This document shows, piece by piece, positions 1 to 16,779 of a DNA stretch of 64,000 nucleotides. A model generated the notes under the pieces. It saw nothing but the letters and a program-made list of their open reading frames with translations, searched no databases and was not told the DNA's origin. The position numbers and the translations under genes are program-made. The stretch lies in the NCBI GenBank assembly GCA_019058275.1, contig JAHLVW010000059.1, forward strand, positions 1 to 64,000, given 5' to 3'. Origin of the DNA: Candidatus Heimdallarchaeota archaeon (GTDB lineage: Archaea > Asgardarchaeota > Heimdallarchaeia > JABLTI01). Position 1 is the first letter of the stretch. Each line of letters begins with the position of its first letter.

Positions 1-1085
1 CATGAAATGTTAATTATATGTACAATATTTGGAATATTCATTCCCAATTCTAGCAAAGATGTTGCAAATAAAAACCTGATAGTGCCATTATAAATTCCTT
101 TTAGTATGCTTGTTTTTTCTTTGTTGTTTAATTGACTGTTAATGCAAGCAAATGGTGAATGTATTTTTAGAATTTCATCTGGAATATTTGTTTTTTTCTT
201 TAGCAATTCATTGCATTTTGCAACCAACTCACCTACCTTTCGAATATCATCAACAAAGATAACACAAACTCCTTTTACCTTACGCAAGTAGGGATCTATT
301 TTTTCTAAAAGTAGATCTTCTATTGATTCTGGCTGTAGGAGCATTACCCTTACGGAACCTCTTGTAGCATTTCCTGTAATAATTTGGGCAGAAGGAAGAA
401 ATTTATCACGAAAAGTCTCGACTTCTTTTACAGTAGCAGAAGCTAGAATAACTCTTAGCTTAGGATTAATTCTTTTAAAGATAGCAATTATTTCACGAAC
501 ATGAGCAAGATACCCACCTGAACCTGCATGAATTTCATCAACAACAAAAGCACCAGCATTTAACAACCAATCTAAAAAATCATTATTGCTTTCTTTAAAG
601 AAACGATAAAATAGTTTGTCAATCGTTGCTAGAATAATATTAGGTTTGCTCTTTTCTATGAATTCAATTTCCTTTCGTTTTAAATCACCATTGTATCTGC
701 TGTAGGTAATTTTTTTTCCTGTTGCTTCATGAATTTTATTGCAATATTTGGCAATTCGTTTTTCTTGGTCCTCTGCTAATTGCTTAGTTGGATAGATAAT
801 AATAGCACAGTTAATCTTACCATTAATGACCTCCTCCAAAATCGGGAATAAAAATGCTTCAGATTTACCTGAACCTGTTCCGACTGCAAGGAAGCAATCA
901 TTTCCTTTAAGTACAGTTCCAATGGCTTCTAATTGATAAGAGTAAAGCTTATTTGGAAATATTTCTTGAATACTTTTGCCAATTTCCTTTAATCCTACTT
1001 CATCACTACCTATATAATAATCTGATACATAACACTTCGATGGTGGTAAATCAAAAACTGATTTCACGAGTGCTCCATTAGACAT
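1..1085 (-). CDS. SF2 DEAD/DEAH-box helicase (Hrq1/SftH/Lhr-like), 3' end runs off the window
   Basis: Not in the ORF track; translated by hand from ATG 1085: MSNGALVKSV...LYSYQLEAI (Q motif), AVGTGSGKS (Walker A), IYPTKQLAEDQ (Ia), VVDEIH (II), LASAT (III), ATSLLELGMNI (V). Open to position 1. Confidence 0.9.
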   Translation of the reverse strand, partial: MSNGALVKSVFDLPPSKCYVSDYYIGSDEVGLKEIGKSIQEIFPNKLYSYQLEAIGTVLKGNDCFLAVGTGSGKSEAFLFPILEEVINGKINCAIIIYPTKQLAEDQEKRIAKYCNKIHEATGKKITYSRYNGDLKRKEIEFIEKSKPNIILATIDKLFYRFFKESNNDFLDWLLNAGAFVVDEIHAGSGGYLAHVREIIAIFKRINPKLRVILASATVKEVETFRDKFLPSAQIITGNATRGSVRVMLLQPESIEDLLLEKIDPYLRKVKGVCVIFVDDIRKVGELVAKCNELLKKKTNIPDEILKIHSPFACINSQLNNKEKTSILKGIYNGTIRFLFATSLLELGMNIPNIVHIINIS

Positions 1086-1088
1086 TTC

Positions 1089-1640
1089 TTATCCCACCAC
1101 TATTCTTGCTCCAACAATGTATTCCCAAATTGAATTAAGCTTGCCCTTCAGATATAGCTCGAATTTCTCATCAAAATCCATTGGTGAATACTTCTCAACA
1201 ATTTCATCAATTACTGATTCAATCATTTCAAATTGCTCATTCACTTCAATAAATTCCAATTGACCAAGCAATTCCTTGATTTCTTTCTGAAGGAGCTCTT
1301 CTTGTTTCTTTATCTCAGAATTTCTCAGAAAATTGTCTGCTATTTCATCAAGCTTCTTATAATCAAATAGCAACTCAGAAGGAAATTCTTTTCCTTTAAT
1401 CAAACAATTATATAGCTTGTTTAGATGAGCCAAAGATTCTTCTTTTATTCCATATCTATATTGATTTTTTCTTCCCAGACGCCAAATCAGCTTGTCTTTT
1501 TGCAATGCCTTGAGTGTAAGATATGTTTCACTGAGAGGTAAGTTTACCTCTATAGAGATCTCTTTTGCGCTCTTAGGATGAATTGCGCCTAACTCATTAT
1601 AATCCTTAAGTAAAAAGAGCATTACTCCAAATTTATCCAT
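1089..1640 (-). CDS. Winged-helix DNA-binding protein with helical C-terminus
   Basis: SAKEISIEVNLPLSETYLTLKALQKDKLIWRLGRKNQYRYGI has wHTH spacing. Overlaps the upstream stop and ends 3 nt before the helicase start. Confidence 0.6.
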   Translation of the reverse strand: MDKFGVMLFLLKDYNELGAIHPKSAKEISIEVNLPLSETYLTLKALQKDKLIWRLGRKNQYRYGIKEESLAHLNKLYNCLIKGKEFPSELLFDYKKLDEIADNFLRNSEIKKQEELLQKEIKELLGQLEFIEVNEQFEMIESVIDEIVEKYSPMDFDEKFELYLKGKLNSIWEYIVGARIVVG

Positions 1641-3118
1641 GATACAGGTAGCTCCAATAATGTTTCACTATATTCTTTAGTAATTGGTGATAATTGACCG
1701 ATTTTTTTGCCATGTTTTAGAAGGTGCTTATCTTCTCTATCAGTAAATAAGAATGCAAGTTTCTCAAAATTAGCAATTTCATGGTTTACCCTTTGATCTA
1801 TATGTTTTGATCTCATCCAAACCAATGGTTGAAAGTCAAGTTTTTGGATTTCCTCTTGACAGATTTGAAAAGTACATTCACCTAAGTCATCCCTTACTTT
1901 TGCTGGCAAATATTCCCATTCTAACATTAACCGCCAAAGTTTAACCGCAAAATTATTCCCCAAGTCTGAACCTCTGATAAGCAGATGTTCCTCTTCTAAC
2001 CTATCACCAATATTCGATAACAAAAGATCAAATTCATCAATTTCTTCCCTGCAAGCATCTCTAAAAGAGGAATAATGTTTTCCTCTATGATAACATGAGC
2101 TTTCGAAAAGTTCTTCCTTCTTCTCATAAAGGATATCGCATCCAAATCTTGAAACGATATAAAGATTCTCTCCTTTGAAACCTCTTAATCGATCAACTTC
2201 ATCTCGAGTAATTTCTTCAGCTAATATTGCATCGACCAGTTTAGTGTGCCCTGCTTTCTTTAAGGAATCGCAAAGATCTAATGGCAATCCCATCCAAGAA
2301 AGGTCTGAATAATAACTGAAATGAGAAAATCCACCAACTCCTAAATAGTTAATATTTTTCTCTTCAAGAAGCTTCCACATTTCTTCCTCATAGAACTGGT
2401 ATGTTGTATTAAATAAGGCATCTGCAGATGTTCGAGCCATACTATTATAATTTCCTACCATGCGTTTTAGTTGGTAGAGTCTGTCAGAAATACGATGGCT
2501 TATTTTAAAATTAAATGGTTCTATCAGCTTGTTAGTAAATTTCCAGAGAATTTCTGCTACAAGACCTTCTGCTGAATTGCATAGCATGTTTGCATGACTA
2601 TGATAACCATAGAGATGTGCATCTCCAATTTTATCTACATACTTTTGTAACGCTCTTTGTTCAGGTATCATTCCTTGCAAGGTAAAAATTATACTAAGAT
2701 CACTTTTTATTGCTGATTTTAAGTAAAGATTGTTGAATCCATTGCTTAATCTTATTGCATCAACATAAATTGCTCTCCTGGGTTCTATTCTTTCGACATT
2801 AAACCAACTGCTTAAGTGAGTTTTTCGTTCATAATAACAACCATGGTCAAGTAATCTTTGTTTTATCTCTTCTTGAATACCTGCATAATCATAGATGAAT
2901 TTAATATCTTCTAGTTTATATCTAATATCTCCAATAAAGAGATCATCATTGATTATTCTTACATCATATCCTTGATATATTGTTATGCCTAAATTAGTTC
3001 TTGCTTTTTCTATCTCTTCAACTCCCAAGCCTGTTAACTGATATATCTGGTCATAAAGTATATGACTGCTATCTTTTATGCATTTTACATATTGTTTTTT
3101 GGTATTTTTTTTATTCAT
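1622..3118 (-). CDS. cas1: Highly diverged Cas1/casposase-like integrase (solo, no CRISPR)
   Basis: Cas1-like N-terminal beta domain (YDVRIINDDLFIGDIRYKLEDIKFI...LLDHG), then NSAEGLVAEILW (E184), SADALFNTTY (cf. DPvNAlLNYgY), GGFSH (H266), LPLDLCDSLK (D281/D284, cf. LvyDLmEpfR) and C-terminal DFQP, in Cas1 order and spacing. Confidence 0.72.
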   Translation of the reverse strand: MNKKNTKKQYVKCIKDSSHILYDQIYQLTGLGVEEIEKARTNLGITIYQGYDVRIINDDLFIGDIRYKLEDIKFIYDYAGIQEEIKQRLLDHGCYYERKTHLSSWFNVERIEPRRAIYVDAIRLSNGFNNLYLKSAIKSDLSIIFTLQGMIPEQRALQKYVDKIGDAHLYGYHSHANMLCNSAEGLVAEILWKFTNKLIEPFNFKISHRISDRLYQLKRMVGNYNSMARTSADALFNTTYQFYEEEMWKLLEEKNINYLGVGGFSHFSYYSDLSWMGLPLDLCDSLKKAGHTKLVDAILAEEITRDEVDRLRGFKGENLYIVSRFGCDILYEKKEELFESSCYHRGKHYSSFRDACREEIDEFDLLLSNIGDRLEEEHLLIRGSDLGNNFAVKLWRLMLEWEYLPAKVRDDLGECTFQICQEEIQKLDFQPLVWMRSKHIDQRVNHEIANFEKLAFLFTDREDKHLLKHGKKIGQLSPITKEYSETLLELPVSWINLE

Positions 3119-3144: not shown

Positions 3145-5251
3145 TCAATTTCTCTCCTGTACTAGCTTAAATGCTGAGCCGCATCTTGAGCAACGTGTTT
3201 GAATTGATCCTTGCTGAGGAAACGCAGCATTGCCTAATGCCTTTAGTGGGACCTTTTCTTTACGTTCACTGCAGAATGGGCAAAAATGTGTGAATTCTTC
3301 CTCCCCGTCTGCTGAATAACCATCAAATCTTTTAGGCACTATTTTATTGAATTCATCAATGGTGAAATGGATCTCTAAAATATCTGCCTTTAGAAATGCC
3401 TCGCAAGCAACAGTATTTTTTCTAAGAATCGAGGTTGAAATATAGCCCATTTTGTCTTTTGGAACCTTTCGCTCTGCAGTATCTCTCACTTCTCGCCAAA
3501 AATTGCAGCAGTTTTTATTGAAATGGGTAGCAGTTGCCACATTTCTCAAAGAAATGCTTTGGGATTTCTTTTGTTGAATAGTATGTAACGCTTCTCCCAA
3601 TTGGTGGTTTTACTGTAATAGTGTTTAGTGATAATGAACTGTTTTTTTCAAGATTATCCAATGCTAGTTCAACATCTGAATTCAGTAATGAGAGGTTGAG
3701 AGCAATTTGTGTTCTAGTTAATGGTTGTGTTGCATATTCTAGTTCTTCCTTTATTGCTTGCTCGATAGCTAATCTATCTTTCTTTCCAACTAATGGTTCA
3801 TCTAATATTTCGAGATTTTGAACTATTGCTTTGCTAATGAGAGTGAAGTTCTTTTTAGCTCCTGGTGACATTTGGTCTTGAAAACTTACTAATAATCTAT
3901 AAACTTTAAAAACGGAATAGCTATCTTGTGTTCGTGAAAGAATTTTAGCAATTGTTTCTTCTTCATCATTCTTTTTTGTTTTTAGTCTTCCAAGCAGTAT
4001 TTGTAGATCATTGTAAGCTAATCTTCCATCAGTAAAATTATGAAATATTTCTGAAATAATGTTCCAATCTATAATATCATTTTGTGTTCTGTTTTTGATA
4101 TCTAATAATACGCCAATTGGATCTTCTTGTATTTCTTTGAAATATGTCGATGCTATAAGGAATTTCTTGCCAAATGTGGTAAGAGTATATTTTCCTGAAT
4201 TTCCATTGGCTCTCAAAACTAAAGCGAATTTTCCTAGACTTTGTTGGCACAATTCAAATAAACATTCAGAGGAATATGTTGATTTAAATAATTCCTCAAA
4301 TAAAATTTCTTGAAGAAATTCTGGATTGGTTCTTGACTCGTGAGTATTTTGAAGCAAACGATAGTTAGCTGAATTTTGTATTCGTTTCGTTAATTGTTTT
4401 TTAGTAGGATGACCTGAATAAAGTCTTAGTAACATAGAATATGGGAGAACATATCGCAGATTTTCTTTAATAGAATGTCTATCCATATAAGAACTAAAAT
4501 CAAGCTCATGATCTCCCGTAATTTTAGCTGTTGTTGTTACCTTTAGCATGCTCTTCTGTTCATCTAAAGAAACTATTCCAGGAGAGATATAATGCATTCT
4601 AATGTTTAAGTTATTCATTCTTCTCTTAAAAAACAATATCCCATCTATATCAAAAGTTGTGAAACTCTCTGTAGCTCTTCTTAGAGATCTGTTTTCACCA
4701 AAAGGATCAACAAAAATATACGCATTGGTAAGTGGTAAAGTAACTCTGTTCTTTAATTCTACTACGGAACTTTTCCGATAGAGTAAATTTCGAAGAAGGT
4801 TATCATAGCTTGTAATTATTATACAGTCATTAGCTGAAGGATAACTGTTTCCTTTGAATTTTGAAAAAGTGGAAGCAACACGAATAGCATATTTATCTAT
4901 TGGAGGAGAAATAGTTTCATTTGTTAAGTCATCACTGGAAAAGTTATTCTTTTGATGTGGATTGAGTATGTTGTATATTTTTCTTGCTTCAGCAGAAGTT
5001 CGAACCACAATTAATGATGAAGTATTGACAAAACGAGCATTCAGAAGAGCTAAAGTAACAGCAATTTGCAATTGCTCATCTAGATCTGGTGTTGCAAAAA
5101 GCAAGTCTTCTCTGCAATTAACAGCTTTTCGAATACTTTCTTTGTCAATGTTTGAAGGAAATGGAAAATCTCGCAGAACTGTAGTAATAGCTTTAGGTAG
5201 AGCATTTATGAATCCCAAGTTAATCCCCCTTATTATCTTGTAGAAAATCAT
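3145..5251 (-). CDS. Probable single ~700-aa gene split by a +1 frameshift at ~3525: inactivated Hel308/Ski2-like helicase domain, winged helix, wHTH, Cys cluster, Zn ribbon
   Basis: Track ORFs 3515..5251 and 3145..3600 overlap. Removing one C from TACCCAT gives CGNCYHFNKNCCNFW. The N-terminus follows the SF2 RecA1 layout with degenerate motifs (ATPDLDEQ for Walker A, IIITSYDNL, IFVDP for DExH). C-terminal CPFC...CSRC. Confidence 0.55.
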
Positions 5252-5852
5252 TTAGTGTAGGAATTTTAGTTACGCTTGTTCCTTCGCTGAATACTCTAAT
5301 TATGGACTTAAAAGAGTCTTTGATTTCATCTTTTGAAGAGTCTGATAAATCAAAGTTATCAGTTAATTCATTCAGCAAATCTTCTCGAAGGTCTGATAAA
5401 TAATCGTCCTTTGACTTTAAACAATCTAAAATTGACTGAAGATGCTCTTTAACATCTTGTAACTTCTCAATTCTTGTGGAATCTACCTTATGTTTTTGAG
5501 TTAAAGAAACTTCATGATGAGGTTGGAATAAACTCATTATAAACCTGAATAATGGATTATTGACTTTAACTCGATAAGATTGAGTATTTGATCGTGGAAG
5601 CTTTATTAAAATGCCAAATTCTATAAAAGATAAAACTAAACGATCTATTGTTCTAGAAGATAAGGATAATTTTTCATCGAATTTGAAAGTGTTTAATGAA
5701 GGATAATAATATCTACCATGTTTTATAGCGCTGTTAAATAAGTATTTGCAGAAAATTTTCACCAAGTTTGTAATTTTAACCCTTACACTTGGCAATTCCT
5801 TGTAAATGTCCTTTTCTTGAGCTATTGATGATTCCGAAGACATTATTCTCAT
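5220..5852 (-). CDS. Hypothetical protein with probable wHTH; first gene of the Cas1 operon
   Basis: LSLSSRTIDRLVLSFIEFGILIKLPRSNTQSYRV resembles a wHTH recognition helix plus wing; overlaps the next gene. Confidence 0.5.
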   Translation of the reverse strand: MRIMSSESSIAQEKDIYKELPSVRVKITNLVKIFCKYLFNSAIKHGRYYYPSLNTFKFDEKLSLSSRTIDRLVLSFIEFGILIKLPRSNTQSYRVKVNNPLFRFIMSLFQPHHEVSLTQKHKVDSTRIEKLQDVKEHLQSILDCLKSKDDYLSDLREDLLNELTDNFDLSDSSKDEIKDSFKSIIRVFSEGTSVTKIPTLNDFLQDNKGD

Positions 5853-6163
5853 ACTCTTTCTATCAAGTTTTGTTTAAAAAGCGCTAAATTCGTCAGAAAA
5901 CAGAAAGAAAAATGAATTATGAGGATTAAAATCATCAAAAACCAGAAACAAGATTATGAAGAATATGAAGCATTCGCCAATAGACAAAAAGGCTCAAAAA
6001 ATCAGTCAAAAAAGAAGGCAGGAGAAGGCTTCTTTTTATATAGCGGAAGGTTACTTTAAGTCCCTTTAGAATTAACAAAATGATGTAATTTTGTATTTTT
6101 TACTGTTTTTTTGTTTTTTTTCTGTAGAGGTACTCACAAACAATTTATCTTCTTTGTTTCTCT

Positions 6164-6243
6164 CTGAAGCTCGTGTCGAAGACGACTGTAAAAGGAGGTC
6201 TCCACGAAGTGGAGGAAATAGGTCGCACGAGGGGAGCGTTCAG
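6164..6243 (+). other. GC-rich nested hairpin cluster with cGAAg triloops
   Basis: CTGAA(6164-68)/TTCAG(6239-43), CTCGTG(6170-75)/CACGAG(6226-31), CTCCAC-GAA-GTGGAG(6200-14) and GTC-GAA-GAC(6175-83) in otherwise very AT-rich DNA. Confidence 0.6.
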
Positions 6244-6356
6244 TGACTGAGAAGGATGGAATAGGAAATAGTTACACTTTCAGATTTTGAGGGTAATTCT
6301 AAAGTCTTCTTTCTGCTCAACATTTCGGAATTGCTCTTCAAATCTCTAAATTATTT

Positions 6357-7970
6357 CTATTCTTTTTTAATTCGAAAGAATGTTGTTATATATTGATAGA
6401 GAACTGAATTTTGTAGTTGGTTATTTGTTACTTTCACACCAAAATAGTCACTAAGTGTTTTGTGTAAGTCAGTCTTTTTTTCAGCCGGTTGTTTAATAAG
6501 TAGATACCTTCTTCTTATTGCTAAGTTTTTTACTAGATTCAACAATTTCTCATTTGGTTGCAAATCTAATCGTGCCATAGCTTTTCGAGAACGAAAATAC
6601 TCTAATTTATTTTCAACTAGAAACTGCATTAATTGTTCAGAGGTATTTAGTAATTTTGGTAAGAGTTTTACTAGAAGAGGAAGGGGAAAACTATTACGTC
6701 TTTCATAAGCTGCTAAATGTCCTTTAGGTATAGTTAGAAAGTCTGCGAGCTCTTGTTGAGTCCACGACCAAATCTTCCGGACTGTTCTCATGAATTCTGT
6801 ACAATTATTAACATTTAGATTAGGGATGAGTGCAAAATTAAAATAAGATTCACCATTTAGCGTAATGATGGTTTCAAGATTGATATTATCAATTCGGTAC
6901 TTGTTTGGATCTTCAATTAAATGAAGCCTTTTTTTAGAAAGATATCGATGATATTCCTTTCGTTTTAGGGGGTGTCTTGGGTGCAAAAACTTGCTTAGAA
7001 GATCTTTAGAAGTTGCTTTAATATCTAATGAATAACTAGTGCCAAATTCAGTATTGATAGTTCGAGTGGAATATTTTATGTTATAGTTAGTGAGGACTTT
7101 TACAAATTCCTTAACAAAAAACTTAGAAGAAGAGCAGAAATTAACGTTGTTCTTATAACTGCCATCTGCATCTAAAACACCACTCCAAAACTCCCATCGC
7201 AGTTTTTCATCTGAAACAAAAATGAGAGGTTCTCGTAATGCATGGTATTTTTTACCGGTAATAGGTTGATCAGTTAAGAAATTGACCAATCGTACAAGCC
7301 ATTTATTGTTTAAGTGAAGCAACCAGACATTTTTCTCTCCAGTAATTGATCCCTCAAGACTAAAAAGAGACATTGCTAGTGCTTGTAGCATGAGTATATG
7401 TTCTTGTGAGAAATCAACCAATTCAATATTATGATAATTGAGATGACCATCACCAATAACAATTCCGAGGAAATAAGCTAAATCATCTATCAGTTTTGTA
7501 GGCATGCGAAATTGTTCTCCACGAGCAGATTGGAAAGGAACATGATCTTGGCTGAGGAAATCTTGCCAGAAATCACACAACCGGAAAAGAGGAAAAGGTA
7601 ATCGTTGTTGATTCTCTGTATAATCAATGATTTTTTGCTGCCATTTCTTGATAGAGTAATCAATAGCTGTATCTTGGAAATAATAATGGCATCTCTCAGC
7701 TACCTTCAGTGACTGTTTGCGTAAATTGAGCGCTAAATTAGATGGAAGAGAAATATAAGGCAACCGCTGAAGCTGTCGCTTTCCTGCAAGAAAGTCGTGC
7801 TTGCGAACCATAATGGTATAAAGGTTAAGGATGTTTGGTTTAAGGAATATCTTTGATTGTTTGTGCTGTTCTATTAGTTTGTTTGCTGTCAGCCAATCAT
7901 TTTCCTTTGTTGGATTTGAATCTATAAGCAATGGATCCTTTGACCAGTGGAGATGAGTGGTAATTTTCAT
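6357..7970 (-). CDS. Free-standing double-motif LAGLIDADG endonuclease with C-terminal XRE-type HTH
   Basis: LAYFLGIVIGDG and EFWSGVLDADGS motifs; WSWTQQELADFLTIPKGHLAAYER HTH; GGAGGA SD upstream; no intein splice residues. Confidence 0.8.
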   Translation of the reverse strand: MKITTHLHWSKDPLLIDSNPTKENDWLTANKLIEQHKQSKIFLKPNILNLYTIMVRKHDFLAGKRQLQRLPYISLPSNLALNLRKQSLKVAERCHYYFQDTAIDYSIKKWQQKIIDYTENQQRLPFPLFRLCDFWQDFLSQDHVPFQSARGEQFRMPTKLIDDLAYFLGIVIGDGHLNYHNIELVDFSQEHILMLQALAMSLFSLEGSITGEKNVWLLHLNNKWLVRLVNFLTDQPITGKKYHALREPLIFVSDEKLRWEFWSGVLDADGSYKNNVNFCSSSKFFVKEFVKVLTNYNIKYSTRTINTEFGTSYSLDIKATSKDLLSKFLHPRHPLKRKEYHRYLSKKRLHLIEDPNKYRIDNINLETIITLNGESYFNFALIPNLNVNNCTEFMRTVRKIWSWTQQELADFLTIPKGHLAAYERRNSFPLPLLVKLLPKLLNTSEQLMQFLVENKLEYFRSRKAMARLDLQPNEKLLNLVKNLAIRRRYLLIKQPAEKKTDLHKTLSDYFGVKVTNNQLQNSVLYQYITTFFRIKKE

Positions 7971-8031: not shown

Positions 8032-9781
8032 ATAGCTAATTGTTTAACTATTTTTTTAAATTAAAAATTATTTTTTCTAGTATATAATTAATACTTTCGG
8101 TATACTCCTTAGAAAATAGCTATATATCTAGCTGTATATATATTTTGTTGAAGAAAAATGCCCCGAAAAGAGAACCTACTCATCAAAAGCTACCAATTCA
8201 AGTTGCCAAAAGACGAACGTTTGGTTGGTTTCCAAGAACTCACAATAACAGCAGCGAAAAAACTACTCGAAAAACTCTGGTCAAAAGAATGGCTCTTGAA
8301 ACTTGGAACGGGTGACCTCAAAGCCTACAAGATCATCAACGAAGTACAAGTAGAACTAGAAGGCATTTACTTCCCATCTAGAGTTTGAAGGGGAATAGCA
8401 GAATGGGCAGGACGAATAATTAGAGGGCAATACAAACGTTTCTGTTGCTTTAAAGACTGCCTTGAAATAATCAATTGGTTGGGTGAAACATCGAGTAAAG
8501 CAAAATTAGTAGCTGCAGTAATGAAACATTGCCGAGAGACAATAAAAACAAAGAAAGGCAAAAGGACCTATGCACGATACAAGAAAATCATGGTGGAGCA
8601 AACAATAACGATGATTACTAAATGGCTGAAGCAATTGCCTAATATCTTTGAGCTGTTCGCTTACACTGATTTCGTGAAACCAAAAATAAAACGATTCGCT
8701 TTTCCTTTTGGACCAGATGAGGGGAACGCAATACAATACTTCTCTAACAAGGAAAAAGTCCACATTAAAATGAAGCTACCAACTTGTACAAAGCCAAGAA
8801 GCAGAAAAGACTGGGAGTGGATAGAGCAAGAACTAACTACCCCAACAAAAATACGAGCAAAAATAGAGCTAGCTTTATCACTGCAACCTAAAAATCCGAC
8901 CCTGAGAAATCAAAAGCTCAAAGGAGGACTAACCCATTTCTTCCTCCAGTTTCCATGGGAATACCCAAAAACAAGAAAAAAAGAAGAGAATGGTCAAGTA
9001 TTAGCAGTTGACCTTGGCCTGAAAAAAGTCGCGACAATAGTTATATTCGAGAACGGCAAACAAATCTCACATCCGATCACAATCAAGCTCAAAGGCTCGC
9101 AGTATCGCCACGTCGAACGGATTTATAATCAAATCGTTGGTATTCAAAAGCAGCTTGCAAAAGAAAAGAAAGGTAAGCAAACAAAGAGGAGTAAGAATAA
9201 AAGAAGAGGAAAGAAGAAGGCTCTACCAAAAGAGAAATCGTCTGGGAGAGGAATTAGCACATAATTCGACAAGTATCTTGATACTGTTAGCTCTCGAGTG
9301 GTCTTGCTCGAAAATAGTCATAGAAGATCTTCGCTCGTTCAAACCACCAAGAGGTAGGAGAAGCTGGTCAAGAAGACTCTCACAATGGCTGAGAGGAAGA
9401 ATAGCATTCCTTCTAGAATACAAGTGCAAAGAAGCAGGACTAACGCTTTTAAAAGTCTGCCCATGGAATACTTCAAGTCATTGCCCACGCTGCACAGCAA
9501 AGGGAGTGAAAGTTAAGGGACCAAACAATTTGGTCGCTGATAAGAAAGGTCGCTGGTTCCACTGCCCAGAATGCGGTTTTACAGCAGATCGCGACTATAT
9601 CGCAGCTGTGAATATTTACCGAGCAAGCTTTATCGATTATAAAAAAATTAAATGTCTCAAAGACACCAGTCCCGTGCCCTATATGGACCCGGGAACCCTC
9701 TGCTCAACTGTTCCTAGCGGGGGACTAGAGATGAACCATAACGGACTCGTTATGGTAACTGGGAATAGATAAATATTTCAA
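8032..9781 (+). mobile_element. Non-autonomous tnpB-only (IS1341-like) element; boundaries tentative
   Basis: Visibly higher GC than flanks; perfect subterminal hairpin ACCATAACG-GACT-CGTTATGGT (9735-9756) followed by TTCAA (9777-81); TTGAA at 8027-31 as candidate left target motif; no tnpA. Confidence 0.5.
8158..9772 (+). pseudogene. tnpB: TnpB (IS200/IS605-family RNA-guided nuclease, long ~540-aa type), disrupted
   Basis: RuvC-I VLAVDLG, RuvC-II IVIEDL, Zn finger CPRC...CPEC, RuvC-III DRDYIAAVNI. In-frame TGA at 8386-8388 and a frameshift in the A-rich tract at ~9160-9190 join three track ORFs. Confidence 0.88.
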
Positions 9782-9806
9782 TGATTTTGTCCATAAAAGA
9801 AGGAAC

Positions 9807-9882
9807 GGTTCGCTCTAACCTTAAGCTTTACAGAGATAATGGATTCTCCATTCTATGATGTAAAATGAGTCAAGGGCGAACC
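9807..9882. repeat. ~76-nt imperfect palindrome / long hairpin
   Basis: GGTTCGCTCT(9807-16)/AGGGCGAACC(9873-82), inner TTTACA/TGTAAA, apical AATGGA-TTC-TCCATT. Confidence 0.6.
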
Positions 9883-10849: not shown

Positions 10850-10890
10850 AAATCACCTTGTTTAGAACCAAAAAACTTGTCGAGGATTAT

Positions 10891-13800
10891 ATGGTTTTGA
10901 CAACTGAGGAAATACAAGAACATATCATTATCAAGGGTGCTAGACAACATAATCTTAAGAATGTCAACCTAGATATACCAAGGAATAAACTTGTGGTCTT
11001 AACAGGTGTATCTGGTTCTGGAAAATCTTCACTAGCGTTTGATACTATTTTTGCAGAAGGACAAAGAAGGTATATTGAATCTTTATCAGCATATGCTAGA
11101 CAATTTATGGCTCAAATGAGTAAACCAGATATTGATTCTATTGAAGGTTTATCACCAGCAGTTTCTATAAGTCAGAAAACAACCAGCTATAATCCGAGAA
11201 GTACAGTCGGAACTGTAACAGAAATTTATGATTTTATGAGAGTGTTATTTGCCAGAATAGGTATTCCTCATTGTCCTAAATGTAACATTGAGATTAAGGC
11301 TCAAACTGTAACTAATATAGTTCAACAAGTTTTGAAAGATTATTCAGGTATGGAAATCATGGTTTTATCACCCATTGTAAGAGATCGAAAAGGTGAATAC
11401 CGTAAAGAGCTCAAAGGGTTGCTTGAATCGGGTTACTCTCGAGCAAGAATCGATTTTGAAATAAAACGCTTAGATGAGATGAAAAGTGAAGAAATGGTTC
11501 TTTCACGATATTTCCGCCATACAATAGAGGCTGTTATTGATAGAATTAGTGTTGATGTAGAAGAAGAAGATCGAATCGCTGAATCAATTGAAACCGCAGT
11601 GACTCTTTCAGATGGATTAGTTATAATAACAACCTTAGAAGCTTCTCAGATAAAGAGACGTCTTACACAAGAGAAGAAGAAAACTGATGATAAAAATGAA
11701 GAGGAGTTAGAGGGAAAAATACTTGAAGAACAAATTGGTGAAATGTTATTCTCTATTCATTTAGCATGTCCTAAATGTGGACTAAGTTTTCCAAAATTAG
11801 AACCAAGAAACTTCTCGTTTAACTCAATACATGGTGCTTGTCCTGATTGTAAAGGACTTGGAACAACTATTGAAGTTGATCCAGAAATTCTAGTTGTAAG
11901 CAAGGAATTATCATTAGCTAATGGAGCGTTAGCAGATTATGATCCTAATACGAAACGATTTAGACTAGCAAATATGAGAATCAATAGGATTAAAGCTATA
12001 GCTGAGAAACTAGAATTTTCAATTGATACTCCTCTTAAAGAACTAACAGATCAACAATGGAATGATTTCTTTTATGGTCCGAAGAAACCAATAATGGTTA
12101 ATTATGAGTTCTCATGGTCGGATAAACGAGGGGGGAGAGGGAAAGGAACTGCAAAGCTAAAATTCTCAGGTTTAGGACCAATAATAATGAATCGTTTTAG
12201 GCGTACAAGCTCGCAATATATTCGAGATTTTATTCAGGAATTTAGCTCCCCTGTGAAATGTTCCAAATGTAATGGTTCAGGTTTAAAGGTTGAAAGTCGA
12301 TCAGTAGTTTTCAAAGGAAAAACTATTGCAGATTTAGCTGGTATGTCAATTACTGATTGCATAGATTTTGTAAATTCAATAAAGCTGTTTAAGAATGAGA
12401 AAAAGATTGCTGAAAATTTACTCAAAGAAATAACAATGAGACTAGAATTTCTCATCAATGTAGGATTACCTTATTTAACTTTAAGCAGAAGAGCAAACTC
12501 CTTATCAGGTGGCGAAAGTCAAAGAATAAGATTAGGGACACAAATTGGATCCAGTCTTGAAAACGTACTATATATTTTAGATGAACCAAGTATTGGATTA
12601 CACAACCGAGATAACTTGAAGCTCATAAAAACCCTTGAGAGCTTGAGAGATAAGGGAAATACTGTACTTGTTTCAGAGCATGATATTGATACAATGCTAG
12701 CTGCAGATTGGTTAATTGATATAGGACCAAAAGCAGGTAACTTTGGTGGAGAAATATTAACTGAAGGACCTCCAGAAATAATCGCTAAGCATAAGAAATC
12801 CATTACAGGGAAATATCTTTCAGGTAAAGCTAAAATTAAAACTCCAAGGAAAAGGAGAATTGGTAATGGCAAGATACTGAAAGTTTTAGGTGCTGCTGAA
12901 AACAACTTGAAAGCTATTGATGTGGAGTTTCCATTAGGACTTTTCATATGTGTTACAGGAGTAAGTGGTTCCGGTAAAAGCTCACTTGTTAGCGATGTAA
13001 TGTGGAAGACCCTTGCCAGAACCCTAAATAGAGCAAAAACTAAGCCTGGAAAACATGTGGGGATGGAAGGCACAGAGCATCTTGATAAGGTAATTGAAAT
13101 AGATCAATCACCAATAGGTTACACTCCAAGATCAGTTCCTGCGACATACACTAAAGTGTTAGATCATATAAGAGATTTTTATTCTGCATTACCCATATCC
13201 AAGGCAAGAGGGTTCAAGAAAGGTAGATTCTCTTTCAATACAAAATTAGGCAGATGTTCTGCTTGTAATGGTTTAGGATATAATAGAATAGAGATGCAAT
13301 TTTTACCTAATATCGAAGTTGAGTGTGAAATTTGTTTAGGGAAAAGATATAGTGCGGAAACTCTTGAGATTAAATATCACGATAAGAGCATTCACCAAGT
13401 ATTGGATATGACTGTTAATAATGCACTCGAATTCTTTAAGGATCATCCAAAAATCTCTACCATCCTAAAAACTATGCAAGAAGTTGGTCTAGGATATATT
13501 AAATTGGGGCAGTCCTCAACTACTTTATCAGGTGGTGAGGCACAACGAATTAAGATTTCTCGAGAGTTAAGTAAGAAAGCCACAGGAAAGACACTTTACA
13601 TTCTTGAAGAACCAACCGTAGGTTTACATTCATATGATGTGAATAATTTATTGGCTGTTCTGAATCGATTAGTAGATGCAGGAAATACAGTTGTTGTTGT
13701 TGAGCATAATTTAGATGTAATAAAGTGTGCAGATTGGATCATTGATCTTGGACCTGAGGGAGGAGAAGCAGGAGGGCAAGTAATAGCAACTGGCACACCA

Positions 13801-16779
13801 GAGAATTTAGTAAAGAATGATAACTCATACACGGGTATTGCTTTAAGAAAAGCCCTTACAGACAAATTAATTGTTGACCCAAGCACCATATCTTCGCGTG
13901 AAAAATCATTTGATAGTGTAAAGTCAAGAAACTCTATTAGTATAACTGGGGCAAGAAAGAACAACCTGAAAAATATCAATCTAAGTATACCTAAAAATAA
14001 GCTAATAGTTATAACAGGAATAAGTGGATCTGGTAAATCCTCACTAGCTCTTGATACCCTCTTTGCTGAAGGACAAAGAAGATTTATTGAATCATTATCA
14101 ACTTATGCTAGACAATTTCTAGGTACAATGGATACTACAAGTGTTGACAAGATTGAAGGATTGTCTCCAGCAATTGCTATAGGCCAGAAATCTGCAGGTA
14201 GAAACCCAAGATCAACTGTAGGTACAGTTACTGAAATTAATGATTATTTGAGATTATTATTTGCAACTGTTGGAATCGCTTATTGTCCAATTTGCAACAA
14301 GGACATAAGTCCTTTGACTTTACAAGAAATGGTAAAAAGAACTCTAAGCCTAGGTGAAGGAACTCGAATTAAGATTATTGCTCCATTGGTAAAGGAATCC
14401 CAAGGAAATTTCAAACCACTAATTAAGGAACTGATTAAGGAAGGTTTTACCCGAGTAATAATTGACAATAAGGATGAAGTTCTATTAGAAGAAATAACAT
14501 TTACAGGTAAAGGAAAAGCTGTTCTAGTTAAAGATAAACTAAATACAATAGAACTTGTTGTAGATCGTTTAGTGGTTGATAAAGATGATATTGGTCAATT
14601 ATATGATTCAATTGAGATTGCTTTGCATAAAGGTGAGGGAGTAGTTAGAATAAGTGCAAATGGAGATACTTTGTCCTTCAGTACAAGAAGAAAGTGTTTT
14701 GACTGTGGAGTAGAATTACCTGAAAAATTCACTCCAAAGATGTTTTCATTTAACACTCATGTAGGAGCATGTGACAAATGTTCAGGGTTAGGAGTGATCA
14801 AGTCAATAGATCCAAAATTATTCATAGCAGATACTAGCAAATCCATCAGGCAAGGAGCTATTGGACCAATTACTAAGAACAAAGTTGAAAGCAATTGGAT
14901 GGTATCATTGATTAAAAGTTTGGGAGATGCTTTTGGATTTACACTAGATACACCAATAAAGGACTTAACTGAGGAACAATATCAAATTCTATTTTACGGT
15001 TCAGATAAGAAATTCAAGCAAGTAAGAGATGTTAAGAGAAGAAATTATGCTTATACCTATGAGAGAGAAAGAGAGTTTCGAGGATTAATACCCATTTATG
15101 AAGGATGGTTATCTAAAACAACATCCTATTGGTGGCTTAATTGGATGGAAAAATTCGTCCGAGTTCAAGAATGTTCTAGTTGCCATGGTACAAGGTTAAA
15201 GCCAGAGTTACTAGCAATTCGTGTAGGTGGCTTAAACATTGATGAAATGACAAAGTGCTCTATCGCTGAAGCTTACAATTTCTTCGGTAATCTATCTTTT
15301 GGAGGAGCGGATCAGATTATAGCTGAAGGATTAATTGAGGAAGTACTAGATAGACTCAAGTTTCTTATTGATGTTGGACTTGATTATCTCACATTGAATA
15401 GGGAAGCTCGTACTCTCGCTGGTGGAGAAGCCCAAAGAATTAGATTAGCAAATCAGATTGGGAATAAACTCGTTGGTGTGTTATATGTTTTGGATGAACC
15501 AAGTATAGGATTACATCCAAGAGATAATCAAAGATTGATTAATACTCTAACTGAGTTGCGAGATTTAGGAAACTCTGTTATTGTAATTGAACATGACGAA
15601 GCAACAATTAGAAGTGCAGACCATATAATAGATTTAGGACCAGGTGCTGGAGTAAATGGAGGAAACATTGTTGCTCAAGGTACAATAGAAGAAATTATGG
15701 GAAGTACAAATTCAATAACTGGAAAATATCTTAGTGGAAAGGAAAACATACCAATTCCTAAGAAAAGAAGAAAAGGTCAAGAATTTTTAACTATAAAAGG
15801 AGTTAGACAAAATAACCTTAGAAGTATAACAGCAAAATTCCCACTTGGTGTCTTTAATTGTGTTACTGGTGTAAGTGGTTCTGGTAAAAGTTCACTGGTA
15901 ATAGAAACATTGTATCGTGCTTTAGCAAAAACCTATCATAGATCAAAAGCAGAAGTAGGAAAATATGATTCAATAGATGGTTTGGAAAGTCTTGACAAAG
16001 TTATTATGATTAATCAGAATCCAATTGGTCGAACACCAAGATCTAATCCAGCGACCTATACTGGTTTGTTTGATCATATAAGAGACCTATTTGCTAAACT
16101 ACCTGAAGCAAAGATGAGGGGGTTCACAAATTCACGCTTTTCATATAATAGCTCTCGAGGGAGATGCCAAATTTGTCATGGCCGTGGAACAAAAGAGATA
16201 GAGATGCTGTTCTTAAGCAATGTTGAGATTATTTGTGAAGAATGTTATGGAAGAAGATACAATCGAGAAACACTTCGAGTGAAATTTAAAGGGAAAAGCA
16301 TTGCAGATGTTCTAGAGATGACAATTGAGGATGCAATGCCATTCTTTGAAAACCAACCAAAGATTCTCAAGATTTTAGAAGTGATGGATGAAGTAGGACT
16401 TGGATATTTACAACTCGGACAATCAGCAACGACATTATCAGGAGGAGAGGCTCAAAGAGTTAAGTTAGCCTCTGAGTTATGCCGACCTCAAACAAAGAAA
16501 ACTTTGTATATTTTAGATGAACCAACTGTAGGTTTATCAGCATATGATGTCCACAAATTATTGAACATTTTGAATAAATTAGTCAATGTTGGTAACACAG
16601 TAATAATTATTGAACACAACCTTGATGTAGTGAAAAGTGCAGATTGGATCATTGATCTTGGACCTGAGGGAGGAGACAAGGGTGGACAAGTTGTTGCTAC
16701 TGGAACACCTGAACAGATAAAAAGTAATGCAAAATCAATAACAGGGCAATATCTAAATGATTATTTGCAACTAAAATAG
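10891..16779 (+). CDS. uvrA: Double-length (tandem-fused) excinuclease ABC subunit UvrA
   Basis: Two complete UvrA units: four G(V/I)SGSGKSSL Walker A motifs, four L(S/A)GGExQR signatures, CxxC Zn modules. ATG 10891 has a GAGGA SD (track start 10858). Confidence 0.95.

Follow-up and report, generated by a model that had tools for sequence, protein, structure and literature searches.

Introduction

Cas1 is thought to have descended from the casposases. The latter act as tetramers without Cas2, depend on their helix-turn-helix (HTH) domain for integration, duplicate 14–15 bp of target and have an active site composed of E162, H232 and E247 (PMC6977970); the corresponding residues of E. coli Cas1 are E141, H208, D218 and D221 (PMC9939771). 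IS607 elements insert at GG and generate no duplication (PMC6188088). The diversity of Cas1 homologues in Asgard archaea (aCas1) was treated by Makarova et al. 2020 (CRISPR J 3:156, as cited in PMC8730458), and aCas1–TnpB loci, forming the groups Cas1H-Asgard-1 and -2, were described as probable transposons (Altae-Tran et al. 2023, PMC10691335). Assays of Asgard aCas1 proteins were not found in the literature covered. While aCas1 and the aCas1–TnpB class are, hence, already published, new here are a residue-level verdict on the Cas1 motifs, the fission origin of both terminal extensions and the exact insertion site of one copy.

A distant Cas1 homologue in a Heimdall-group archaeon

The 498-aa ORF at positions 1622–3118 (minus strand) of the window, by which the whole 64,000-nucleotide stretch of contig JAHLVW010000059.1 is meant, encodes a distant Cas1 relative of a Heimdall-group Asgard archaeon. 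It was identified by structure and profile searches only: Pfam, NCBIfam, PADLOC and single-sequence PDB searches yielded no Cas1 match for the ORF, and identity to solved Cas1 proteins is 10–15%. When a profile of 23 Asgard homologues was compared with PDB sequences, the single match was the M. mazei casposase 6OPM (E = 4e-7). With an AlphaFold model built from 20 homologues (pLDDT 68, pTM 0.69), the best 50 Foldseek matches were all Cas1 or casposase, and VIA aligned the model with Cas1 of A. fulgidus (4N06; Z 20.3, rmsd 4.7, 284 aligned residues) and with 6OPM (Z 19.2, rmsd 7.0, 268 aligned residues), the first unrelated chain scoring Z 5.9. The N-terminal β domain and the helical catalytic domain of the superfamily are both present in the model, in which the Cas1 fold begins at residue 42–44 and finishes near 436–442. 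All named homologues are from records labeled Heimdallarchaeota. The gene is under purifying selection (dN/dS 0.12–0.14 versus three paralogues).

Catalytic residues and motif changes

The preliminary description had called D233-A-L-F-N237 (2408–2422; D233 codon 2422–2420), G263-F-S-H266 (2321–2332; H266 codon 2323–2321) and D281-L-C-D284 (2267–2278; D281 and D284 codons 2278–2276 and 2269–2267, respectively; all minus strand) non-standard versions of the Cas1 motifs, and all three are found at these residues of the ORF. In the profile alignment to 6OPM, D233 falls on the first Asn of N-x-x-L-N-Y, H266 on the His of GFLH (casposase H232) and D281/D284 on DLxE; motif and spacing suggest that E184 (2567–2569, minus strand) is the catalytic Glu equivalent to casposase E162, which completes the E, H and D-x-x-D/E set of the superfamily. 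Across 20 close homologues, E184, D233, N237, H266 and D281 are invariant, and position 284 is acidic in 18 (12 D and 6 E; the other two have N), so that the conservation of the catalytic set that had been proposed as a check was indeed observed. In a wider set of 68 Asgard Cas1 homologues, which reaches down to about 20% identity and includes many close kin, so that the counts are not independent, 64 sequences have E and four have D at residue 184, N237 is kept in all 68, and H266 and D281 are each kept in 67 of 67. Position 284 is D in 34, E in 30 and N in three sequences; by contrast, position 233 (D in 43, N in 16 and S, H or A in nine) and position 265 (12 different residues) vary. Together with the structural matches (Z about 19–20), this near-fixed catalytic set bears out the assignment to the Cas1 family.

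As casposase E247 and E. coli D221 hold the equivalent place, D284 is an ordinary metal ligand; and as positions 233 and 265 vary while the catalytic set is near-fixed, the deviations are ordinary variation at non-catalytic positions. Judged from these alignments, the motif changes are harmless and without special meaning: they exist, but to call them non-standard overstates the case, because E. coli Cas1, too, has Asp in the last place, and residues 233 and 265 differ from member to member of the family. The motif changes are, in other words, not the interesting part of this protein. A more distinctive family trait is a basic loop (2423–2494, minus strand), which starts with R209-x3-R213, both Arg residues being invariant in 23 distant homologues, and continues for 18–20 residues in all homologues (19 residues before D233 here); it is probably a DNA contact. 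Fold, residue set and purifying selection predict that the ORF product is probably a catalytically competent aCas1 integrase.

Operon context

Cas1 is preceded on the minus strand by a ∼200-aa, putatively HTH-like gene (5220–5852), which is the first of the operon and conserved in all split-type cassettes, and by a gene for a protein with a Hel308/Ski2-like helicase fold and a winged HTH (wHTH; 3515–5251), as recognized by a fold search with an intact homologue. Walker or other recognizable ATPase motifs were not seen in the latter, and the gene is frameshifted near 3520, which detaches its C-terminal Cys-rich/Zn-ribbon part (3145–3600, minus strand). Cas1 is followed, with an overlap of 19 nt at its stop codon, by a gene for a winged-helix protein of 183 aa (1089–1640, minus strand; weak profile match, E = 0.0013), and then by an SF2 DEAD/DEAH helicase gene (1–1085, minus strand) cut by the contig end. 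In L012, the corresponding locus of a sister strain, the helicase measures 778 aa and is followed by a metallophosphoesterase. A LAGLIDADG/WhiA-like protein with HTH (537 aa; 6357–7970, minus strand) is encoded ahead of the operon, and beyond it tnpB (8158–9772, plus strand), whose frame is interrupted at codon 77 (an in-frame TGA) and near 9170 (a frameshift) and which has kept the RuvC D-E-D residues. The order ∼200-aa gene, helicase-like/Zn gene, Cas1, wHTH gene, DEAD helicase and metallophosphoesterase, preceded by the LAGLIDADG-HTH gene, is the same wherever a locus extends far enough to reveal it.

Gene calls in the cassette revealed neither cas2, cas4, a CRISPR array nor polB (the latter was checked in L012–L014), and no unassigned ORF of ≥70 aa in the operon. 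PADLOC matched none of Cas1 and its partners except the helicase. Scans of the window for repeats and tRNAs gave nothing beyond chance, and there was no Rfam match. Elsewhere in the window, at 10858–16779, a tandem (double-length) UvrA of 1973 aa is encoded. Of this LAGLIDADG-HTH family, the genome (G000) has about 20 genes, and several are divergently paired with tnpB across a conserved spacer of 170–190 bp.

Evidence for fission of a larger protein

The alignments to known structures cover residues 42–442, so residues 1–41 and 437–498 lie outside the Cas1 fold. An N-terminal extension, a helical insert ahead of FQP and a tail had all been noticed earlier, and each stood up: residues 1–41 precede the fold (extension of aa 1–43; 2990–3118), ∼50 residues (377–427; 1838–1990) form two helices in the model, and residues 437–498 (1625–1810; all minus strand) follow it. 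The insert is of variable length in the family, the distance from residue 366 to 429 being 62 here and 6–68 in relatives. Seen within the whole model only, insert and tail gave no structural match.

Fused relatives are single chains of 1300+ aa, made up of a dead helicase, wHTH, Zn ribbon/Cys clusters, Cas1 and a winged helix, and the upstream gene and the Cas1 N-terminus are collinear with them. In these proteins, the N-terminal extension corresponds to the strand and helix after the second Zn ribbon; hhalign of aa 4–96 against them gave 96.6% (E = 5e-10), and the match of the extension alone was weak (25%, E = 7.5e-4). The break point lies between the last Zn-ribbon strand and the strand at aa 9–16. 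At the other terminus, the tail aligns with the linker to the winged helix in C27, C50, C17, P0037, P0039 and P0041. The wHTH is fused to Cas1 in C17 and C27 and encoded separately in C11, where it is 52% identical to the C17 tail; the 183-aa protein of the window is the probable counterpart of this fused domain, as far as sequence comparison can tell. Since each extension can be aligned with a linker of the fused proteins, the two are best read as fission scars facing the flanking genes rather than as new substitutes for Cas2, which casposases do without as well. According to these alignments, a giant protein was split in three, namely into dead Hel308-like helicase–wHTH–Zn ribbon, Cas1 and wHTH, with Cas1 as the central part; within the phylum, this form is confined to this genus. 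The suggestion that the extensions are partner- or target-binding surfaces fits insofar as the partners would be the products of the flanking genes, but neither extension arose as a novelty in this protein, both being linkers in its fused relatives. When complex formation between Cas1 residues 1–112 and the upstream Zn domain was predicted, the score was 0.28 (mark, 0.32). The fact that the HTH of casposases is essential for integration suggests a role for the separate wHTH gene.

Relatives at tRNA 3′ ends

Besides being multi-copy, the cassette encodes a phosphoesterase and an SF2 helicase that looks active. The genome contains four split paralogues and about 11 longer aCas1 genes. In many relatives, the phosphoesterase stop codon abuts the 3′ end of a tRNA gene (Ala, Pro or Lys), and 25–36 bp of that tRNA 3′ end recur 13–16 kb upstream, a duplication found at six loci. 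Up to four extra copies of the tRNA-end repeat are present at one locus, and once the repeat is accompanied by the remnant of an older cassette. Cas1 proteins 74–82% identical to that of the window reside at four different sites, and one tRNA-Ala site is occupied by two different Cas1 clades in different genomes, which together indicate that the cassette is mobile. The closest relatives of this Cas1 are without tnpB. Terminal inverted repeats were not found in tRNA-type copies. No tyrosine recombinase was called inside L013 or L014; the genome has six of them, and these, acting in trans, could give rise to duplications of the same kind at tRNA ends.

Tyrosine and serine recombinases of the host are among the observations that would fit a different and rather doubtful reading, namely that the operon is cargo for defense, repair or DNA capture, Cas1 being a nuclease or an integrase of fragments, and that other recombinases do the moving. 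The helicase resembles defense helicases, the tRNA-type copies carry a PD-(D/E)xK nuclease and toxin–antitoxin genes, and the junctions of the copy in the window (see below) are not of the Cas1 type. However, a junction right after the phosphoesterase stop that recurs at many different tRNAs, along with repeated scars, suits a self-mobilizing unit, and PADLOC recognized none of the partners but the helicase.

Several further observations concern these loci. In L033/L034 (G086:C110), four extra tRNA-Ala 3′ ends, 1.0–3.6 kb apart and lying between cargo genes, make up a tandem accretion array. Scars of the phosphoesterase 3′ end are located beside tRNA fragments in L013 (444–669, 15385–15468 and 17257–17482), in L017 (6739–6822) and near the tRNA-Ala of C19. 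Between C84 of this genome and the sister strain, the tRNA-Lys locus differs by an inversion. The nuclease of the tRNA-type copies is a ∼720-aa protein (L013 4132–6321 and homologues) that has a NERD/Hjc-like nuclease at its C-terminus and may contain another PD-(D/E)xK domain, and it is absent where tnpB stands; its identification as ARAMP (Cas5/Cas7) was rejected, as it is a PD-(D/E)xK nuclease and not a RAMP.

Non-coding elements and CRISPR links

Upstream of the operon, a GC-rich conserved non-coding stretch (6140–6270, minus strand; no Rfam match) with a UUCG-type hairpin is about 80% conserved in nine cassettes and also present on C70 and C61. Its fold z-score is about −2.3, and one compensatory pair was observed in the nine sequences, which is weak covariation; it is possibly an RNA and, for now, a candidate. 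A quasi-palindrome at 6010–6036, whose 8-bp arms flank an asymmetric spacer of 11 bp, the latter inverted in some copies, lies upstream of aCas1 operons and also in two CRISPR leader-like regions of the genome (other sites: C76 372, C39 9891, C25 12780, C91 284 and C33 100782); it is possibly a shared regulator or recombination site. The genome further contains two canonical Cas1 genes with CRISPR repeats, on C26 and C76.

A 55%-identical cassette (L022 8217–9901, L023 554–740) lies between CRISPR repeats, with a three-repeat mini-array upstream and a degenerate repeat followed by 22 RF01320 repeats about 25 bp past the phosphoesterase stop. This relative between two CRISPR arrays, and the palindrome common to CRISPR leaders, are the reasons to entertain a speculative idea that we regard as rather improbable: a polymerase-free and Cas2-free Cas1, composed of three gene products, might insert gene-sized DNA at tRNA 3′ ends, with duplications of 25–36 bp (the size of a CRISPR repeat) and tandem arrays separated by repeats, and might as such represent an intermediate between casposons and CRISPR adaptation.

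Insertion site and ends of this copy

The copy in the window is not at a tRNA 3′ end, as its close relatives are. Its Cas1 gene lies within an 11.8-kb insertion that eight congeners are missing; at the empty site, a methyltransferase and a DUF1295 gene are about 300 bp apart, and about 11.8 kb separate them in L012. Because the contig stops at window base 1, inside the helicase gene, the distal element end was taken from L012 (99.4% identical). Compared with the eight empty sites, the junctions have a GG(TT) core of at most 4 bp in common; as the empty-site strains are about 20% diverged, a 4-bp duplication is indistinguishable from a shared core. Within these limits of empty-site divergence, the IS607 features of a GG core and no target duplication beyond it are present. 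The right end (9780–9810, plus strand; GG core at 9807–9808, host DNA resuming about 9810) follows tnpB and represents the right end that members of this tnpB family have in common; the GTTCACTCA motif of PMC10691335 was not seen there. A near match to the distal end, as read in L012, is the end that precedes a serine-recombinase gene on C117. The end motif had also been considered as an inverted repeat of the Cas1 type, which was rejected because it matches the end upstream of the IS607-type TnpA. Serine recombinase tnpA is absent in cis, and the genome has only two PF00239 genes, on C117 and C11, one of them frameshifted.

The nearest relatives of tnpB, the LAGLIDADG gene and Cas1 of this copy are discordant (as seen in a quick tree without bootstrap, used for near relationships only), and tnpB is mosaic with respect to Cas1: the TnpB proteins of L016 and C27 are 88% identical, and their Cas1 proteins belong to distant clades. 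In three scars, degenerate tRNA-end remnants lie between the phosphoesterase gene and the IS607 end. Both observations suggest a capture of tRNA-type cassettes between ends of the IS607 type. The broken tnpB and the frameshifted helicase-like gene, whose +1 frameshift is common to L012 (which carries a second one), indicate that the element is decaying. Cas1 is intact and differs from that of L012 by one synonymous and three non-synonymous changes, too few to judge relaxation.

Discussion

The best explanation, to which we assign a probability of roughly 55%, is that the locus is a polymerase-less, tRNA-targeting cassette, whose aCas1 derives from a split giant protein and which was captured here between IS607 ends and is decaying. 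The three split pieces would reassemble, Cas1 would oligomerize like a casposase, and the separate wHTH would take the part of the essential casposase HTH. The cassette would be inserted by staggered transesterification at tRNA 3′ ends, whereby 25–36 bp become duplicated. In the case of this copy, cassette and tnpB would have come to lie between IS607 ends; the GG core and the lack of a duplication suggest IS607 TnpA, acting in trans, as the last mover, and decay would have set in since.

Less convincing, in our view unlikely, is that aCas1 is the in-cis transposase of an IS607-ended tnpB element, having replaced TnpA and recognizing the ends, as proposed for such loci (Altae-Tran et al. 2023, PMC10691335). 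That the layout of tnpB, LAGLIDADG gene, aCas1, helicase and end motif is repeated at loci whose Cas1 proteins are only about 20% alike would be explained by this proposal, as would the about 20 bp of imperfect inverted similarity between the two ends and the scarcity of TnpA genes in the genome. Yet the GG(TT) core with a duplication of ≤4 bp is at variance with the 14–15 bp of casposases (PMC6977970), one end is a near match to that of an element encoding TnpA, and the mosaic relation of tnpB to Cas1 (L016/C27) and the tRNA-end remnants between phosphoesterase and IS607 end in three scars point to capture. That the protein is an inactive scaffold, or of another family, is very improbable: the lack of a Pfam or NCBIfam Cas1 match, the 10–15% identity to solved Cas1 proteins, the N at position 284 of three homologues and the broken neighbors of this copy are outweighed by structural Z-scores of 19–20, a catalytic set near-invariant in 68 sequences and a dN/dS of about 0.13.

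The split form offers a compact catalytic core of 498 aa with two candidate partners and two defined substrates, that is, tRNA 3′ ends and IS607-type ends. The question whether aCas1 moves these elements or is carried by them thereby becomes testable.

Comparison with known systems

With the Cas1 of CRISPR adaptation (A. fulgidus 4N06), the protein shares fold and catalytic set; unlike there, cas2, cas4 and an array are absent from the cassette. It has the Cas1 fold, the E/H/D-x-x-E set, the absence of Cas2 and an HTH function at the C-terminus in common with casposases (M. mazei 6OPM; A. boonei), and its relatives likewise target tRNA 3′ ends. Unlike casposons, the cassette lacks a family B polymerase gene (polB), its HTH is encoded by a separate, overlapping gene instead of the casposase C-terminus, helicase and Zn partners are present, and duplications of 25–36 bp in the relatives replace those of 14–15 bp; casposon-like terminal inverted repeats were not found. 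The GG core, the lack of a target duplication, short direct repeats near the end and tnpB beside the right end are as in IS607 (PMC6188088), in which, however, tnpA takes the place held here by about 10 kb of aCas1 cassette. Most similar are the Cas1H-Asgard loci, given the Asgard host, a highly diverged Cas1 without array, the linked tnpB, helicase and WhiA/LAGLIDADG-like genes, flanking repeats and a proposed transposase. In contrast to these, Cas1 stands alone here as the central part of a protein split in three, its nearest relatives reside without tnpB at tRNA 3′ ends, and the ends of this copy are of the IS607 type.
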